Source of the DNA: Promethearchaeota archaeon
GTDB lineage: Archaea > Asgardarchaeota > Lokiarchaeia > Sigyniarchaeales > SOKP01
NCBI GenBank assembly: GCA_019057865.1
Contig: JAHLWP010000004.1
Coordinates: 100,045 to 164,044, forward strand
Direction: 5' to 3'
DNA length: 64,000 nt
A program made the translations under genes and the position numbers. Shown in pieces: positions 38,259 to 63,121 of the stretch. Under the pieces are notes generated by a model that searched no databases, was not told where the DNA came from, and saw only the letters and a list, made by a program, of their open reading frames with translations. How positions within the stretch are numbered: position 1 is the stretch's first letter; every line of letters starts with the position of its first letter.

Positions 38259-41200
38259 TTAATGATCATAGATATTTTTAAAATATTCTATATGAGTACT
38301 ATTTAGATGATCTATTAAGTCTCTTTCTCCCTCTGAAATTGAATAAATATCAAAAATTAAATTATCAATTTCTCGATAAATTGCTTTAGATTCATTATTT
38401 ATTTGACCATTATTTTCTTCTAAACGTAAAGTAAGATGATCTACATTCTCAGTGATTACATCTATTATTCCTTGATTTGCTTCTACGATGGGCAAATGTC
38501 TTATCATATACTGATTTAAGTTAATTGTAGTATCCTTTTGGTTATTGATAGCATACCAACAGTAAAACTGTATTAGACTTGAATTTAGAATAGCAGAAAG
38601 ATATTTTAACATTTTATTATCTTTGTGAAGTAATGAATAGATTGAGGATGTAAAACAAACAGGTTCCTCTGTATAGATAGTCTCTGGGACGATACTATTA
38701 TGTTTAATTAATAATTTTTTATTCATATAATATTCATAATTCTCTCCTTTTAATTCATCAGCAGAGATTTCCTCAAGATTAAAGGATTTATTCTTATCAA
38801 TGTAATTATATTTAAAATCGTTTTTGGCATCTATAAAATAGCATGTACCCTCAACATTCTCTTTTATAATTTTTCTAACTTCTGTGAGGCCAGTATCTTC
38901 TTCTCCACGGATCATTTTAGGAAAATCGACAGTATTTAAAAAATTTAAATCTGCTTTTTTTTCAATTTTTTTAATTAACTTGTAAATGGGTTCAGTTTGC
39001 TTTATCCTGATTCGATTTAAAACAGCTGTATCATTATTACATTCAGGGCATTTTATATATTCAGTATAATAATAAAAATCAGCATTTCCGTCATAATATT
39101 TGCAAGTTCTATTCTGACATATTCTTATATTATCGATTTCAAAAGGATTTTCTCCATCCTTATCTAAATCATATTCTATTATTGTCTCATTATCGAAAAG
39201 GTCTTTGATTTTCAATTTTCTAGAATAGCTCTTATTCCCATGAAAAAAGAGAATCTGAACTTCATTTGTAGGTCCTTGAAATTGATTTGAACCGATATCT
39301 GTTATCTCATATATCCCAACATTTTCTAATAAAAAATTCCGAACTGATAGATATTTTTGTCTTAATAAATATGATTTAGGTGTGAGAATTCCTGCATATT
39401 GGCAAGGTATTTCTTTTCGAGCTATTCTAAGTAAAAAATTTAAATATGCATCTTCCGTTATTTTATCACTTTCTTTGAGTATAAGCTTCTCTAATGGACT
39501 TAAAATATTGCCATAAGGTGGATTTGTGAGGATAATATCAAACCCTTTAGTAGTAAAAAAATCTGAAAATTCCATCGACCAATGAAAGGGATTAATTGTA
39601 CGTAAATCCTCTAAACCTATGAAATAGGTAATCTTTATATCTTTAATAGTATCCTTATCAATGAGATTAAGTAAATTCTTAAATAAAGTTTCAGGATCTT
39701 GGGCTTTAAACTTATCCTTCCTATCTGGAGAAAAGACTCTATTTGTAAATGAAATATAATTCTTTCTAAAAGTAATCCCTCTTATAACTTGACTTTTTTC
39801 ATCTTTTTTAAAACTATCCTTCTCTTCTTCAGTAATATCAAACTCTGTATCTTTTTTTGATCTTATTGTTATTGATTCTATATTGGTAAGATCAATATCA
39901 TTAAATTCTTGAGGTAAGATAGTGATTTCTCTTCCGGTAATATTCTTCTTTTGAAAATCTCCTAATAATAATTTGTCAAAATTATCTACGTATTTATTTG
40001 TGAGTTCTTTTATTTCAAGTCTTAAAGATTCTCTTTCTACCTGTGTCTCTTGTCCATAATATCTCCGTATCTTTTTATTTCTCTCAATAAGCATCTGTCT
40101 TAAGGAATCTTCCTTCTTCCCTGCCCATTCACTAAGGGGGGATAATCCGCTGATAATTTTTTTTCCTCTTTTTGTCACCACATCAACCTTTTTAATACTC
40201 TTAGTATATCCAAGTAAACTATTACCAACACGTATATTATATTCTATATTTGGTAATGGTTCAATCTCTAAACCGATTGTATCATACTGCGGTGGGGGTT
40301 GAACAATCCAAAGCCATAATCTTAATTCACATATCTCGACAGCAGAAGGATTAATATCTACTCCATATAGATTATTTTGAACAATAAATGATTTCAGATC
40401 AAATAAATCTTTAAATGGGCGTCTATCTCCCTCAATCTTTTCTTTGGATTTATAAGACAATTCAATTAAGTCAACATTTCTGATAAAGAAATTATAATAA
40501 TCTACCATTAAATTACCTATACTCACCAAAAAAGCACCAGAACCTATAGCCGGATCGCAAATTTTTACGTTCTTCAATAATTCTATTGAATATTCATATA
40601 TTTCAGATTTGTGTTCAAGAGAAAGCATTTTAAATTGAGTTACTGTTTCAAGCGTCCATACTAGTTTATTCTTAAATTTTTTATTGATATTATCAAGCAA
40701 ATATCTTTCTAATGTATTTTTTGCCATATAGCGAGTGATTAGAGATCTTGTATAATATGCTCCTGTCTCTTTACGATAGTCTCCAATCGATTTCTCAAAT
40801 ATATATCCTAATATACTTGGATTTATAGAATTATTTTTTTTACTCTGTTCTTCTCCTTCCTCTTTAAGGGTAAAATTATATGTTTTTAAGAATTGCCAAA
40901 TATCAATAATTGCATCAGAATTTAGAGAGATGGTTGGATTACTTTCTTCTATTTCTGAAACACGAAATAATCCTCCATTCAAATAAGGCAATTCTTTAAA
41001 CTTCTCCAAAACATCAATTCTTTCACCCTCATTGTTAAAAACATTAAAAAAAAGATCCATTAAACTTTTAAAATAATTTCTTGGCTCCTCATTATCGAGA
41101 ATTTCTTGAACAGGATCAAATCGTAATAATTTCCAATCCAACAGAATTTTTATGAACATCATCCTAAAAAATATTGTCCTATAATAATTTATTTTTTCTT

Positions 41201-41966
41201 GTCTGTATTCTGTCTCTGACATTCCTTTTGAACGAATAAGCCCCCTAATATTAATTTTAGGCAAAGTTTTACTGGTACCTTCCCCTGTTAATTTTCTCAA
41301 TCTTCTACTAAATTGCTGAAAGAATTTTTTAGTTATAACTTCTCCTTTTACTTCTTCAAGATAGGGTCTCTCTTCTCCTATTGCCACATCACGAATTATT
41401 TCTAGAATTTCGTGGGGTTTTTTTTGAATGGGTTTCATCGAATTTGAAGATTTATCATGAATTAGAATATACCATTCATTAAAATTGGTCACAACAGCAT
41501 TATATTTTTGTTCTAATCCAACACATTTTTCGAACCATTCTTGAGCTTGTTCAATTCCTTCCTCTCTTTTATCATCTTTTTTATCTCTCTTTTTGTCTAA
41601 TCTTTTATTAAGAGCCTCTACTTCAAACAGTAAAGATTTTCCTTTCCCTGCGTTTAGAATCCCAAAATCTGGAAAACGCTCAATATCTTTTCCTTCAAAA
41701 TGTTTAGAGATTAAACGGACTTGATCTATTATCAAATCATCTGAAATATCTACTTTATATAGTAATCTTTTTACAAATTTATCTGTTAAGGGTTCTGGTT
41801 GGGAACCTTTCGTTAATGGCAACGGTTTTATATATTTAGAAGATAAAACTAATCTTTTATCCGCTTTTTGATCTAGACTAAATAAACATGCTCTAATTTC
41901 GTCATTATCAATAACTTTTTCCATAAATTTCTCTCTTGCTTCTTGAAAAATAACTTGAAAATTCAA
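38259..41966 (-). CDS. Type IIG (Eco57I-like) restriction-modification enzyme: PD-(D/E)xK-like nuclease, N6-adenine MTase and TaqI_C-like TRD
   Basis: FPDF...FEVE, LPYLNGGLF, LGYIFE, GAYYT, DPAIGSGAF, YGVDIN, FHW..EF, TNPPYG, YL.AILNS, HLPI. Confidence 0.92.
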   Translation of the reverse strand: MNFQVIFQEAREKFMEKVIDNDEIRACLFSLDQKADKRLVLSSKYIKPLPLTKGSQPEPLTDKFVKRLLYKVDISDDLIIDQVRLISKHFEGKDIERFPDFGILNAGKGKSLLFEVEALNKRLDKKRDKKDDKREEGIEQAQEWFEKCVGLEQKYNAVVTNFNEWYILIHDKSSNSMKPIQKKPHEILEIIRDVAIGEERPYLEEVKGEVITKKFFQQFSRRLRKLTGEGTSKTLPKINIRGLIRSKGMSETEYRQEKINYYRTIFFRMMFIKILLDWKLLRFDPVQEILDNEEPRNYFKSLMDLFFNVFNNEGERIDVLEKFKELPYLNGGLFRVSEIEESNPTISLNSDAIIDIWQFLKTYNFTLKEEGEEQSKKNNSINPSILGYIFEKSIGDYRKETGAYYTRSLITRYMAKNTLERYLLDNINKKFKNKLVWTLETVTQFKMLSLEHKSEIYEYSIELLKNVKICDPAIGSGAFLVSIGNLMVDYYNFFIRNVDLIELSYKSKEKIEGDRRPFKDLFDLKSFIVQNNLYGVDINPSAVEICELRLWLWIVQPPPQYDTIGLEIEPLPNIEYNIRVGNSLLGYTKSIKKVDVVTKRGKKIISGLSPLSEWAGKKEDSLRQMLIERNKKIRRYYGQETQVERESLRLEIKELTNKYVDNFDKLLLGDFQKKNITGREITILPQEFNDIDLTNIESITIRSKKDTEFDITEEEKDSFKKDEKSQVIRGITFRKNYISFTNRVFSPDRKDKFKAQDPETLFKNLLNLIDKDTIKDIKITYFIGLEDLRTINPFHWSMEFSDFFTTKGFDIILTNPPYGNILSPLEKLILKESDKITEDAYLNFLLRIARKEIPCQYAGILTPKSYLLRQKYLSVRNFLLENVGIYEITDIGSNQFQGPTNEVQILFFHGNKSYSRKLKIKDLFDNETIIEYDLDKDGENPFEIDNIRICQNRTCKYYDGNADFYYYTEYIKCPECNNDTAVLNRIRIKQTEPIYKLIKKIEKKADLNFLNTVDFPKMIRGEEDTGLTEVRKIIKENVEGTCYFIDAKNDFKYNYIDKNKSFNLEEISADELKGENYEYYMNKKLLIKHNSIVPETIYTEEPVCFTSSIYSLLHKDNKMLKYLSAILNSSLIQFYCWYAINNQKDTTINLNQYMIRHLPIVEANQGIIDVITENVDHLTLRLEENNGQINNESKAIYREIDNLIFDIYSISEGERDLIDHLNSTHIEYFKNIYDH

Positions 41967-52078: not shown

Positions 52079-52921
52079 ATGATCTTCCAAGATAAGATCG
52101 ATGAAACTAATGAACAAATAGAAGAGATAGAAAAAATTATTGATGACTTAAAGAATCAGCTAAAGAAAGCGACAGATGAAAATGAAATTTATGAGATCAA
52201 ATGGAAGATTAAAGATTCATGTAAGCAAGCTAAGGATAAATACCGATCCTTGCAGATTTGGTCCAAAAAAGATCAGTCTGACAATTATTTTAAATATCTT
52301 TGTAATGAAATCTTTTTTTATGAAAGCTGTTTAAAAATGCTTGAAGCCAAGTTCGGCACAGAGAAGATAGATTATAGACATTATCTTAATGTCGCATATT
52401 TAGAAAGTATTTACTTCTCTGATAATGAATATCCCCCGAATTTTAGTGAATTTCAAAGTTCGAAAACTTTTGATGACTTAGGAGTCAATCTGATTGTAAA
52501 TAACATTTATAATGCTCAAAAAAATATAGAAGTCATAATAACTCATCATAAGAAAGTAGCTCACAAGGATTTATTCATTTATTATGAATTATTGGGCGAT
52601 TTGGAAATTCATATTTTTTGTTATTACCAAAAATTTGAATCATATGAACATCGGGAATCATTGTTTAATGCATTTCTTTATTACAAATTCTCAATATGGC
52701 ATAAAACTCAACTCGAAAAATTACACCCTCAAACACACTTTGATGGATTACATGGTTGGGCCAGTCATGGCATATTCCATGATTTTTACGGTAAACTAGG
52801 TGTCTCATTTATAACAGATGTAAGAGATAAGAAAGAGAAACTTAATATGAATTATCCCTTAACTCAAGAAGAAAATATGAAATTAGAGAAATTATTTAAG
52901 AGGGATATAAATGGAGGATGA
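52079..52921 (+). CDS. Hypothetical helical (TPR-like/coiled-coil) protein
   Basis: 280 aa; GAGG upstream; overlaps the next gene. Confidence 0.55.
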   Translation: MIFQDKIDETNEQIEEIEKIIDDLKNQLKKATDENEIYEIKWKIKDSCKQAKDKYRSLQIWSKKDQSDNYFKYLCNEIFFYESCLKMLEAKFGTEKIDYRHYLNVAYLESIYFSDNEYPPNFSEFQSSKTFDDLGVNLIVNNIYNAQKNIEVIITHHKKVAHKDLFIYYELLGDLEIHIFCYYQKFESYEHRESLFNAFLYYKFSIWHKTQLEKLHPQTHFDGLHGWASHGIFHDFYGKLGVSFITDVRDKKEKLNMNYPLTQEENMKLEKLFKRDINGG

Positions 52922-53558
52922 TTCCAATTCTTTCAGCAGAGTAATTCCTAAAATAGGAGACCCACCAAAGGGGGAGGGTCTATTAGAAAAACCTCTTGAA
53001 ACTGAAGAGATTTCTAGTCTTCATTTAGTTACTATAAAGACGAATATATGTAAAGATATTAATGTGGAATTTCATACCATTGAAGGGGAAATAATCCAAG
53101 GCACAAAAATCCCTGTAAACTTTCTTTCTAAAATCCAAAACTATGAAAATTTAGGAATTAGGAATGAAATCCAAAAGAGACTATTCAAAAAAAGTCAATA
53201 TGGAGAACTAGTGCAAAAAGGAGGGATATACATTTTTTGCGATTCCAAAATTCCTTCTATTAAAAGACAAATTTATGTTGGTGAGTCTAATGAATTACTC
53301 ACTCGTCTCAAGAATCATAAAAAAACAAAACAAGGGAATTTTTCATCAATACTTATCATCACAAGTTTGGGGGATAATATTGGGAAAGATAAGCTAAAAG
53401 TAATTGAGTCTATGTTGATTAGATCATTAAAAGAACATCCCGCTTTCGAGGTAATTAATAAGCAAGAAAAAACTAAATTTCAAGTAGAAATTTTTGATGA
53501 ACCATTAGTTAAGAAGTATTATGAAACAATTTTGCATTTAATTGAGCGGAATTGTTGA
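52911..53558 (+). CDS. GIY-YIG nuclease family protein
   Basis: GGIYIF...IYVGES..L..RL..H...IESMLI...N. Confidence 0.85.
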   Translation: MEDDSNSFSRVIPKIGDPPKGEGLLEKPLETEEISSLHLVTIKTNICKDINVEFHTIEGEIIQGTKIPVNFLSKIQNYENLGIRNEIQKRLFKKSQYGELVQKGGIYIFCDSKIPSIKRQIYVGESNELLTRLKNHKKTKQGNFSSILIITSLGDNIGKDKLKVIESMLIRSLKEHPAFEVINKQEKTKFQVEIFDEPLVKKYYETILHLIERNC

Positions 53559-55900: not shown

Positions 55901-57562
55901 ATGAGTGAAACAAGAGATAATTTAATCAATGATTTTCCTAATACTTGGAATATAATACCTATTAGTAGAAATTCTAAAGTAGCTAGTAGCTCTTGGAAGA
56001 ATTATCAAAATAAAAAATATCCAAGAAATAAACTTCTTAAAGATAATGGAAATTATGCGGTAATATGTGGAGAGATAAGTAATAATCTTTTGATATTAGA
56101 TTTAGATCTAAGAGATAAAAAACATTTTGAATCTATTTACTCAAAATTTCAAAATAAATATCCTGAATTATCTAAAACTCTTATAGTAGAAACTCCTCAT
56201 GGATTTCATTTATATTTTTATATGAATGGTTTTAGTGAAACTTCTCATAATAGAAAAAACGCTTGTTATAATGAGAAATTAAAGTTTACCGGATCAGTTA
56301 AGACTCAGTTTAAAGAATACCTAAAGGGATTTGATTGTAAGGGAGAAAAGGGTTATGCTATAATACCACCTAGTAGAGTGGATAATTTATATTATAAATA
56401 TCATAATAAGGAAGATATAAAACATATTGCCTTAGATGATTATGCTAAGATAAATAATTTTTTTCTCTTAGACAAACCAAAAAATCTGAGAAAGCCTTTT
56501 AAAGACATTCTAAATGGTAAAATTGAAATTGAAGAACAAGCAAATAAAACCGGTAAAGAAGAATTCCTTTATTGGAAATATCTATTCAAAGAGGCTTATA
56601 ATTTCTGTGGATTAGAACCTAAAGAATTATATAAGGGATTAGAGGAAAATCAACCTAATTTTGATATAGTAAAAACGAAAACTCAATTAAATCATCATGA
56701 TTTCCATGAGAAACCATTGACAAATGGGAAAATGAAAGAACTTTACCCAGATTATTATGCTGCTAAAAAAAGATCAGAATCATATATTTCCTCTAAAACA
56801 TCTAAAACAAAAGCAAAAAAAAAGAGAGAAATTAAAACTCTAACTCCTAAGAGAATTCAAGAATGTGAAGAATGGTTAAATCTACCGGAAAAAGAGAAAT
56901 ATAATTTCCTCAACGAACTTATTAGTTTTTATATTAAGGGAAAAGAAACAAGAGAACAAGCCTTAACAATACTTTTCCTAAAATTAAGTGTTATATTAGC
57001 AAAAGAACTTATCTCAAAAATGGATTTAGTCATGGGAGATTTATCGGCATTAAAAGATGACTTAAAAATTGGAAGTGAAACTGTTATTAAAAAAGAAAAT
57101 TCAGAAGTTGATAATAAAGTATTTATCGTTCATGGGAGAAACCAAGAAATGAAAGAATCTGTTGCTCGTCTAATAGAAAAAGTAAATCTTAAGGCTGTTA
57201 TTCTTCATGAACAACCAAATGAAGGAAAAACTATTATTGAAAAGTTTGAAAAGTATTCTGATGTAGGTTATGCTGTAGTACTTCTTTCCGCGGATGATAA
57301 AGGGTATTCAATACAAGATGGTCAAGAAAAAACTAAATTTAGAGCACGGCAAAATGTCATCCTTGAGTTGGGGATTTTTTATGGAAGTCTGGGAAGAGGC
57401 AAAGTTGCCGTGATTTATGAGGAAAACGAAGAGTTTGAAATGCCGACCGATTTACTGGGAATTGCTTATATACCTTATGATAACAGAGGAGCTTGGAAAT
57501 ATCATTTAGTTGGAGAATTACAAAGTAGTGGTTTTGCAGTCAGTAAAAATGATATCAATTGA
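55901..57562 (+). CDS. Bifunctional primase-polymerase (Prim-Pol) fused to a C-terminal Cap12/Pycsar-type TIR domain
   Basis: N-terminal WKNYQ, NYAVICG, LILDLD, ETPHGFHLYF, IIPPS; C-terminal KVFIVHG, ILHEQPNEGKTIIEKFE, ARQNVILELG, PTDLLGI.YI; GAGGGT SD. Confidence 0.88.
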   Translation: MSETRDNLINDFPNTWNIIPISRNSKVASSSWKNYQNKKYPRNKLLKDNGNYAVICGEISNNLLILDLDLRDKKHFESIYSKFQNKYPELSKTLIVETPHGFHLYFYMNGFSETSHNRKNACYNEKLKFTGSVKTQFKEYLKGFDCKGEKGYAIIPPSRVDNLYYKYHNKEDIKHIALDDYAKINNFFLLDKPKNLRKPFKDILNGKIEIEEQANKTGKEEFLYWKYLFKEAYNFCGLEPKELYKGLEENQPNFDIVKTKTQLNHHDFHEKPLTNGKMKELYPDYYAAKKRSESYISSKTSKTKAKKKREIKTLTPKRIQECEEWLNLPEKEKYNFLNELISFYIKGKETREQALTILFLKLSVILAKELISKMDLVMGDLSALKDDLKIGSETVIKKENSEVDNKVFIVHGRNQEMKESVARLIEKVNLKAVILHEQPNEGKTIIEKFEKYSDVGYAVVLLSADDKGYSIQDGQEKTKFRARQNVILELGIFYGSLGRGKVAVIYEENEEFEMPTDLLGIAYIPYDNRGAWKYHLVGELQSSGFAVSKNDIN

Positions 57563-61216: not shown

Positions 61217-63121
61217 TTATTTTGAGATAAATACTTTTAAACTCTCAATAAAATCGAAATTATCATACTTAACATCAAGTTTATTTTTCTCTATAACTTC
61301 ATGATTAACATATTCAGAGCTTGTTTCTATTCTCATTTTATATGTTATATGGCCCTCTTTCATTCTGACTCCTAATTTTTCACTTGTTTGAGCAATTATA
61401 GCAAGTAAAATATTCTTATCATTTCCTTTTCCATCTTTAATTATTAATGGTTGAAAATGGACAAACTGTTTCTGATAATTGATAAATTTCATAATAAATT
61501 TCTGTAGATCTCTAACTTTTGATTCTATGTCGTCAAGACCATATACTTCTCTAGGGGGTTTATCGGAAATGCCAATTATCATTAGCCCCCCTAAATTATT
61601 AGCAAAACTAATTACATCTTCGCAGAAATCTTTTTTATTTTTTTCTCTTATTTGAGGTGGTGTTGGTTTCCATACTTCTAAAAATTGTGTAAAGTCCCAT
61701 AGCTTATTTTCTATTCTATTGTCTTCAATTGCTTTTTTAACAAAATCTTTCCAAAACTCTATATCATAAAGTTTTGATATTTGATTTTGATATCTCTCAG
61801 TATCTAAATCTAAATCATTATAAATTAATTCGAATTCATCCTTTGAAATAGTTCTTACTTCTGAATAATTACCTCTTTTTTGAATTAAATATATTGAACA
61901 ATTCTCTTCATTTTTATCTAAAAATTCTCTAGAGTGAGTTGAAATAAAAAATTGAATTTTATTTGATATATCAATGAATCTATTTTTTAATTTAGTTACT
62001 AATCCGGGGTGTAAATGGAGTTCAGGTTCTTCTATGCATAATATTTTGTTTTTATTTAATTCTGTAATATAAGCTAAAAAGTGAGCTACATTTAAGACTC
62101 CTGCTCCCATATTATCTAGTAAAATATCCATATTCAGACCATTTTCTTTTAAAATTATCATTGTCCTTTCTGTTTCGTTAATGTCTTGTTTTAATTCAAT
62201 AATATTTGGTAAAAAGTATTTCAATTCGTTATTCCATTCCCTAAACCATTCCCACTTCTGTCTTGCTGCTTTTTTATGAAGAAATTTTACCAAGTTTTCA
62301 CCACTTGGTTTTAGTTCTGTTTTGGTGATGTCATTTCGATCAGATTCAGGATTAAAATTACGTTTATCAGGTATAATATGGATTACATTAAAAAAACAAT
62401 TGAAAAGTGCATTAAAAATTTCTGATAAAATTGGAATATCTTTTTTGAACATATCATGATCTCGGAAATAAGTTATTGCTTGTAAATCAAACGTTCCACT
62501 AATTCCAGAAGGCTTTAATTCTTTTAATGAAAAATTTTTATCAATCCCTTTATTTGGTTCCAAAAATTTTTCTAAATTGAGATAATATGGCTCATAATTG
62601 TGGTTTTTTTTAATCATTTGAAAAACAATTTGAGGATTCTTTATATTAAAATGCTCTACAGAAATTTCATCTAATAGTAATTGATTAGACTCTTTTAAAT
62701 ATGAGGTTCTCAAATAAAGTTTCCTGAAATAATCTCGTGATAATAACCATTTGATGGCAGTTTCTTCATTATTCCATTCACTCCTTTTTAGATATCCATC
62801 AGATTTTTCATCATGTATAAATGCTTTTTGTAAATAATTTCCTTGATATAGTATTTTAAAGATTTTAGTTTTGAATTCTTGAGATAGCTTAAAAGTTAAA
62901 AAAATCTTACAATCTAATTCATCATTCTCATCAAATAAATATTTTTTTGTAAAACCTCCACTTGATTTTAGCATTTTAAAGATTTTGAATAAATTAGATT
63001 TCCCTGAATTGTTTTTTCCAATAAGAATATTGTAATTTTTGAAATCTGAAAATTTCGCATGCTTATAACTCAAAAAATTCTTAATTTCTATTTCCTTCAA
63101 TTTTAAATCCAATTTAATCAC
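61217..63121 (-). CDS. OLD/AAA_15-type ABC ATPase fused to a C-terminal Schlafen/AlbA_2 domain
   Basis: IKNFLSY, GKNNSGKSN, signature MGAG, LCIEEPELHLHP, STHS; then IENKLWDF...DVISFANNLGGLMIIGISD...MR. Confidence 0.88.
   Translation of the reverse strand: MIKLDLKLKEIEIKNFLSYKHAKFSDFKNYNILIGKNNSGKSNLFKIFKMLKSSGGFTKKYLFDENDELDCKIFLTFKLSQEFKTKIFKILYQGNYLQKAFIHDEKSDGYLKRSEWNNEETAIKWLLSRDYFRKLYLRTSYLKESNQLLLDEISVEHFNIKNPQIVFQMIKKNHNYEPYYLNLEKFLEPNKGIDKNFSLKELKPSGISGTFDLQAITYFRDHDMFKKDIPILSEIFNALFNCFFNVIHIIPDKRNFNPESDRNDITKTELKPSGENLVKFLHKKAARQKWEWFREWNNELKYFLPNIIELKQDINETERTMIILKENGLNMDILLDNMGAGVLNVAHFLAYITELNKNKILCIEEPELHLHPGLVTKLKNRFIDISNKIQFFISTHSREFLDKNEENCSIYLIQKRGNYSEVRTISKDEFELIYNDLDLDTERYQNQISKLYDIEFWKDFVKKAIEDNRIENKLWDFTQFLEVWKPTPPQIREKNKKDFCEDVISFANNLGGLMIIGISDKPPREVYGLDDIESKVRDLQKFIMKFINYQKQFVHFQPLIIKDGKGNDKNILLAIIAQTSEKLGVRMKEGHITYKMRIETSSEYVNHEVIEKNKLDVKYDNFDFIESLKVFISK

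Follow-up and report, generated by a model that had tools for sequence, protein, structure and literature searches.

An OLD-type ABC ATPase fused to a Schlafen domain: a mostly Asgard family of putative stand-alone defence proteins with a natural lysine-to-threonine variant

The protein characterized here (P0001) joins, in a single polypeptide, an ABC ATPase of the OLD type to a Schlafen/AlbA_2 domain at the C-terminus, and belongs to a small family that is found mostly in Asgard archaea. Its gene lies 0.9 kb from the end of, and amid ORFans in, the stretch of 64,000 nucleotides from a Promethearchaeota archaeon that was analysed as a whole, hereafter the window. What can be discerned about the role of such a fusion? 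The interpretation we favour, and to which we give a fair measure of confidence, is that of a family of stand-alone defence proteins in which the ATPase serves as sensor and switch and the Schlafen domain as a metal-dependent tRNase effector, the copy in the window probably being weakened or inactive.

The reading frame opens with a GTG at position 63121; a TTG 9 bases downstream would fit the N-termini of most homologues equally well. In the N-terminal part of the product Pfam recognizes AAA_15 (residues 7-400, E 2.7e-24) and AAA_21 (residues 31-402, E 3e-21), with a beta-rich insertion at residues ~50-330. Walker A, signature, Walker B and H-loop (Table 1) are all in place, as in the N-terminal ABC ATPase of the OLD family: MGAG precedes Walker B by 22 residues, IEEPELHLHP spans residues 363-372, and in an alignment of the 44 full-length family members the ABC motifs, including Q312, are invariant or nearly so. 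An AlphaFold2 model of the full-length protein, built with this 44-sequence family alignment, has a mean pLDDT of 89.6. The best PDB matches of its ATPase in Foldseek are GajA, the retron Eco8 effector, PtuA, Rad50 and SMC heads, which places the module in the OLD/GajA type. The PADLOC and NCBIfam models for HEC-01A, AriA, Old, NsnB, GajA, PtuA and the retron Eco8 effector reach only the ATPase part, all with scores far under the curated family cut-offs. Our analysis thus agrees with the original prediction of an intact OLD/AAA_15-type ABC ATPase, every motif quoted there being present in the translation.

Table 1. Features of the fusion gene, its surroundings and its paralogue (window positions unless a locus is named)
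Feature	Position	Strand	Basis or remark
Whole gene, ABC ATPase-Schlafen fusion (P0001)	61217..63121	-	single intact ORF, 634 aa + stop
OLD/GajA-type ABC ATPase module, residues 1-440	61802..63121	-	Pfam, PADLOC, Foldseek
Walker A, GKNNSGKS, residues 35-42	62996..63019	-	G35, N37, G40, K41, S42 invariant (44 family members)
ABC signature-like motif MGAG, residues 338-341	62099..62110	-	G339 invariant, M338 in at least 90% (44 members)
Walker B + D-loop, ILCIEEPELHLHP, residues 360-372	62006..62044	-	I363, E365, P366 invariant (44 members)
H-loop, STHS, residues 394-397	61931..61942	-	T395, H396, S397 invariant (44 members)
Schlafen/AlbA_2 domain, residues 467-634	61220..61723	-	Pfam, predicted fold
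Catalytic motif E471-x4-D476-F-T478 (K at 478 in family)	61688..61711	-	44-member alignment and codon check
D520, third acidic residue (GISD)	61562..61564	-	aligned with VDD Asp of SLFN11/13; follows GG...G strand
Type IIG restriction-modification enzyme, 1235 aa, Eco57I/MmeI-like methylase with TaqI_C specificity domain	38259-41966	-	
GIY-YIG domain protein	52911-53558	+	PADLOC candidate PDC-S14-like, E 3e-17
Prim-Pol N-terminus fused to CAP12/Pycsar-type TIR domain	55901-57562	+	PDC-S35 matches, E 5e-62, C-terminal half
Two small ORFs, 66 + 72 aa, just upstream of P0001	63184-63384, 63416-63634	-	
Paralogue P0122	L033 5707-7626	-	flanked by 1026-aa ORF and several ORFans

In the C-terminal part, SLFN_AlbA_2 (PF04326) matches residues 494-593 with E 1.5e-8 and 35.6 bits against a cut-off of 25.3, the corresponding scores of the relatives being 37-54 bits. 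The confident model of this domain resembles AlbA_2, Schlafen and SAMD9 structures only, and has the AlbA_2 fold. Neither Pfam nor the structure search gave a TOPRIM match in the protein; together with the TOPRIM-like sisters discussed below, this bears out the proposal that a Schlafen core here stands in the place of TOPRIM. The domain carries the motifs IENKLWDFTQ (residues 470-479) and FANNLGGLMIIGISD (residues 506-520). In the aligned Schlafen domains of the 44 family members, E471, W475 and D476 show no variation, Lys occupies position 478 in 43, and position 520 is Asp in 39 and Asn in the remaining 5. Residues E471, D476 and K478 fall on Pfam model positions 1, 6 and 8, position 1 coinciding with the family Glu in six relatives. 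Hence the E-x4-D-x-K of the family is in register with the motif Ex4(E/D)xK of prokaryotic Schlafens (PMC13056530). It also corresponds to the E17-D22-K24 triad of CbCash, where each of the substitutions E17Q, D22N and K24A destroys tRNA cleavage (PMC13462974). The window protein itself has the third acidic residue, D520, and an incomplete Ex4(E/D)xK motif.

How does this architecture relate to established systems? With the OLD-family nucleases, such as P2 Old (Class 1), GajA of Gabija and the retron Eco8 effector, P0001 shares the N-terminal motif set (GxxxxGKS, IEEPE.HLHP, THS) and the arrangement of a single polypeptide with a C-terminal nuclease; they are its closest solved folds, and its nearest sisters by sequence are 800-aa proteins with a TOPRIM-like domain (VEGxxD...DxDR). 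Unlike these nucleases, however, it has a 190-aa Schlafen/AlbA_2 domain instead of TOPRIM, and is for this reason not an OLD nuclease in the strict sense. A nuclease domain of the same Ex4(E/D)xK Schlafen type, likewise fused to a sensor module, is found in the prokaryotic Schlafens (pSlfn1-55, e.g. RorSlfn5 and EcoSlfn7; PMC13056530) and in Cash (PMC13462974), which are defence-island genes and experimentally shown tRNases conferring phage restriction or toxicity (PMC13056530, PMC13462974). In contrast to them, our family combines an OLD-type ABC ATPase as sensor with a Schlafen domain at the C-terminus, in an archaeal host; P0001 additionally lacks the Lys. In their main texts, the two 2026 papers name Schlafen fusions to HisKinase/GHKL, HTH, DUF5929, Ig-like, DUF262, TBP-like, Csx15, NACHT, methyltransferase and Argonaute modules, but none to an OLD-type ABC ATPase (PMC13056530, PMC13462974). 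Conversely, a 2026 overview of ABC-ATPase effectors covers TOPRIM, HNH, HEPN and Menshen modules, with Schlafen not among them. The literature search gave no paper connecting Asgard archaea with a Schlafen defence gene, and in PADLOC 2.0 and the main texts of the accessible papers the architecture, which might already have been a catalogued system, does not appear.

Two further systems resemble the family in their logic. The comparison with PrrC and RloC drawn in the original prediction holds as an analogy, in that there, too, a tRNA nuclease fused at the C-terminus is under the control of an ABC-type ATPase and serves an abortive response. It does not extend to the effector, which in PrrC/RloC is a HEPN domain with a fold unrelated to Schlafen; P0001 has no HEPN, PrrC or RloC match in Pfam, NCBIfam or PADLOC and no sequence relation to their nuclease part, its predicted fold being AlbA_2. 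In PARIS, whose AriA profile covers the P0001 ATPase end to end, an ABC ATPase sensor likewise releases a tRNA-cleaving nuclease. PARIS, however, consists of two genes with a TOPRIM effector, whereas our family is encoded by one gene with a Schlafen effector and no conserved partner. Finally, the single PADLOC match obtained with the C-terminal 205 residues alone, and the only PADLOC model on this domain, is PDC-S50 (E 7.8e-8), a single-gene candidate with a Schlafen-like domain. The match spans profile positions 7-94 of 387, that is, the N-terminus of the PDC-S50 family, which has no ABC ATPase.

The closest relatives of the ATPase provide a view of how the fusion may have arisen. About 15 sister proteins of ~800 aa have an ATPase 44-52% identical to that of P0001, followed by a different, 350-aa C-terminus. 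These C-termini form one family with invariant VEGxxD and DxDR motifs; a sequence profile built from them found nothing in the PDB, and their Pfam matches are weak (OLD-like_TOPRIM, E 0.004; DUF3226, E 6e-4), with precomputed PF20469 matches in addition. Judged by these weak or precomputed matches and the motifs, the sisters are probably TOPRIM nucleases with an extra domain. In a maximum-likelihood tree built from the ATPase part, Schlafen forms intermingle with TOPRIM-like ones; one 805-aa protein, for example, is nested inside a fully supported clade of Schlafen forms. Well-supported branches force at least five switches of the C-terminal type in this tree, which came from a quick search, has some long branches and carries no support values other than SH-aLRT. 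It follows that a single ATPase chassis has had its effector modules exchanged. Both types also occur side by side: the 10.6-kb contig L038 encodes, among ORFans and 6 kb apart, a TOPRIM-like 805-aa sister (P0071, 1-2111) and a Schlafen-type protein (P0012, 8001-9923), which makes recombination between co-resident paralogues a plausible route of exchange.

A search of 5.8 billion proteins yielded ~60 clusters (90% identity) with both domains, at the same length or in cut versions. As these have the entire architecture in common, it is far beyond chance. Named members are few, being Lokiarchaeia or Promethearchaeota MAGs, and the family as a whole comes almost entirely from Asgard metagenome genomes. 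Among species-representative genomes, our survey of the fusion, one of the checks envisaged at the outset, found it in one Anoxychlamydiales bacterium and at five Promethearchaeota loci, of which one is interrupted by an in-frame stop. Within the phylum, 7 of 400 genomes have a match, all in the window's own taxonomic family; ~5 of the 7 carry the Schlafen fusion, and two genomes have two copies. The gene is thus present in ~1-2% of the phylum's genomes and is patchy within the genus. At the interrupted locus (L003, 1021-2937), a lone in-frame TAA separates the ATPase from the Schlafen domain, leaving ORFs at 1021-2415 and 2419-2937 in the same frame; the locus is either a pseudogene or a split form. 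Among bacterial genomes, the Anoxychlamydiales MAG alone has the complete fusion (L008, 6651-8540), at 38% identity across the full length; this suggests either that the gene was passed between an Asgard archaeon and a chlamydia living in anoxic sediment or that the MAG was wrongly binned.

The Schlafen subtype is distributed more widely than the fusion. A profile search of 1.84 billion representatives gave 151 clusters under E 1e-30, most of them ~445-aa proteins with a ~255-aa unannotated N-terminal domain, some of ~200 aa that consist of the domain alone, and ~18 of ~630 aa. Such shorter forms occur in Methanosarcinales, Methanolobus bombayensis, Thaumarchaeota, Chloroflexota, Acidobacteriota and others. 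The ~255-aa domain of the ~445-aa relatives (L002, L006, L010, L013 and others) is matched by no Pfam family and could represent a sensor module not yet described. One protein of 2337 aa (P0196) has 22 separate matches to the Schlafen-domain profile and may be a tandem array of Schlafen-like repeats. With the subtype spread over these archaeal and bacterial groups as well as a chlamydial genome, the fusion rare and patchy in Asgard genomes, and no affinity specific to eukaryotes shown, the proposed relevance to how eukaryotic SLFNs originated finds no support.

In its genomic setting, the gene is a unit of its own, since no gene within 5 kb is common to the ten loci compared. A split form, with ATPase and Schlafen domain on two genes, is unsupported, since no ATPase gene of this family adjoins those of the relatives whose N-termini differ, except at L002, where the ORF of a distant ATPase begins ~2 kb downstream of the Schlafen gene. 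The two small ORFs just upstream of P0001 each have a purine-rich stretch ahead of their ATG, but neither a Pfam match nor a counterpart at other loci. The run of ORFans in which P0001 lies also holds the Type IIG enzyme and the PDC-S14-like and PDC-S35-like genes of Table 1, and the homologue at L034 follows a tyrosine recombinase (integrase) gene and precedes a run of small ORFans. Occurrence in 7 of 400 genomes, no conserved neighbour at the ten loci, island genes and the integrase at L034 argue for the defence character of the family, which in its distribution behaves as a patchy accessory gene in an island context with no obligatory partner. The Asgard host and defence-like setting of the original prediction are supported by these observations.

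The window copy is a special case, as it is the sole member among 44 with Thr at position 478. The codon, ACA at 61688-61690, is a single transversion from AAA. It encodes Thr also in a 97% identical protein on a separate JGI metagenome contig and is unchanged in contigs of three further sediment runs from two other studies, so that a sequencing error can be rejected. The replacement of Lys by Thr (DFTQ), already remarked upon in the original prediction, weighs more than was thought then, given the Lys of 43 of the 44 members and the effect of K24A in CbCash. With the catalytic Lys lost, weak or no cleavage is predicted, and P0001 is probably a weakened or inactive member of the family. On another contig, the same genome encodes a second full-length ATPase-Schlafen paralogue (P0122, G000:C11:5722-7611, 44% identity) with the canonical WDFK motif, which probably supplies the activity. 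As to the fate of P0001, it departs from the consensus at just two of 70 highly conserved columns, K478T and a conservative Thr-to-Ser, and all strain variants observed keep its ORF free of indels and stops. General decay is not supported by this column count, and the intact ORF and conserved columns sit poorly with simple decay. Comparison with the 97% relative gives 22 non-synonymous and 5 synonymous changes, a dN/dS of 0.99, and the strain variants comprise 32 non-synonymous versus 5 synonymous changes; ratios near or above 1 are compatible with decay, and they would fit relaxed or diversifying selection alike, the divergence being too small to separate the two. Three fates are conceivable for the copy: island cargo in decay, maintenance as a non-cleaving variant or, with lower probability, an enzyme that is still active.

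Maintenance of a non-cleaving variant would make P0001 a sensor, a decoy or a regulatory subunit that binds RNA or mixes with the paralogue in oligomers. We regard this as rather unlikely, although several observations speak for it: all ATPase motifs and 68 of the 70 conserved columns are kept, the ORF is intact with Thr fixed across strain variants from several studies, a canonical paralogue resides in the same genome, non-synonymous changes mostly avoid conserved columns (only one of 28 positions by our own count), and there is precedent in mammalian Schlafens without catalytic residues. It is weakened by the dN/dS of ~1 and by a strain variant in which the family-invariant N621 is changed to His; moreover, mixed oligomers are purely hypothetical, and the paralogues are merely 44% identical. 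That P0001 is a fully active nuclease despite K478T, for instance with another basic residue or a different metal geometry substituting, strikes us as improbable. The retention of E471, D476 and D520 and the persistence of the variant in several populations would be in line with activity, but the Lys of 43 of 44 relatives and the abolished cleavage of CbCash K24A (PMC13462974) are not, and the 70 columns compared revealed no compensating change at other conserved positions.

Other alternatives concern the family as a whole. Several AlbA_2 domains are DNA-binding or nuclease-inactive (SLFN5, the SAMD9 DNA-binding structure, RecG-like regulators), which runs counter to a tRNase reading, and the best structural matches of the AlbA_2 domain of P0001 include a DNA-bound SAMD9 domain and the DNA-binding SLFN5. 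The domain could then bind or nick DNA, and the protein would be akin to a classical OLD or Gabija DNase, with whose TOPRIM-like counterparts among the sisters it has its ATPase chassis in common. Yet the family keeps the complete RNase triad of tRNA-cleaving Schlafens, and P2 OLD itself is now reported to target tRNA (bioRxiv 10.64898/2026.07.10.737580), so that we place little credence in a DNA target. A part in regulating replication has been ascribed to some archaeal OLD homologues (bioRxiv 10.64898/2026.07.10.737580, introduction), which could point to a non-immune housekeeping ATPase in DNA or RNA metabolism. Such a role is made highly unlikely by the patchy distribution in ~1-2% of the phylum's genomes, and the lack of conserved synteny, the island contexts and the swapped effectors likewise speak against it.

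Returning to the favoured reading of a stand-alone defence protein, a mechanism can be outlined by analogy to characterized systems. The OLD-type ABC ATPase would sense infection and respond by switching conformation; at rest, the Schlafen domains of the oligomer would be held apart or occluded. A viral cue, perceived by the ATPase or its variable insertion domain, would alter nucleotide-dependent head engagement and thereby pair the single-lobe Schlafen domains into an active RNase, which would cut tRNA, halt translation and abort the infection. By the same analogy, we infer the tRNA target, the gating by ATP, the trigger and the antiviral role. Active Schlafens require paired lobes or filaments (PMC13462974), P2 OLD is reported to be an abortive tRNase activated by tetramer destabilization, and ABC ATPases are known drivers of TOPRIM, HNH and HEPN effectors (both bioRxiv 10.64898/2026.07.10.737580); these published findings strengthen a reading as stand-alone abortive infection. 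A bolder scenario, which we put forward only tentatively and with more doubt than conviction, is that the Asgard ABC-ATPase chassis constitutes a general infection switch on which TOPRIM-like and Schlafen heads, both aimed at tRNA, were repeatedly swapped, the K478T lineage being a maintained non-cleaving decoy or regulator beside its canonical paralogue.

It was not until 2025-2026 that prokaryotic Schlafens were established as antiviral tRNases. The family described here unites a Schlafen domain with the OLD-type ABC ATPase, a sensor chassis that is widespread, and adds an archaeal, Asgard-centred architecture to the known Schlafens. With TOPRIM-like and Schlafen forms interleaved and co-resident, nature itself offers a test of whether unrelated nucleases can be driven by a single ATPase switch, and the natural Lys-to-Thr variant, together with the canonical paralogue in the same genome, constitutes a ready-made pair for probing the role of this residue.
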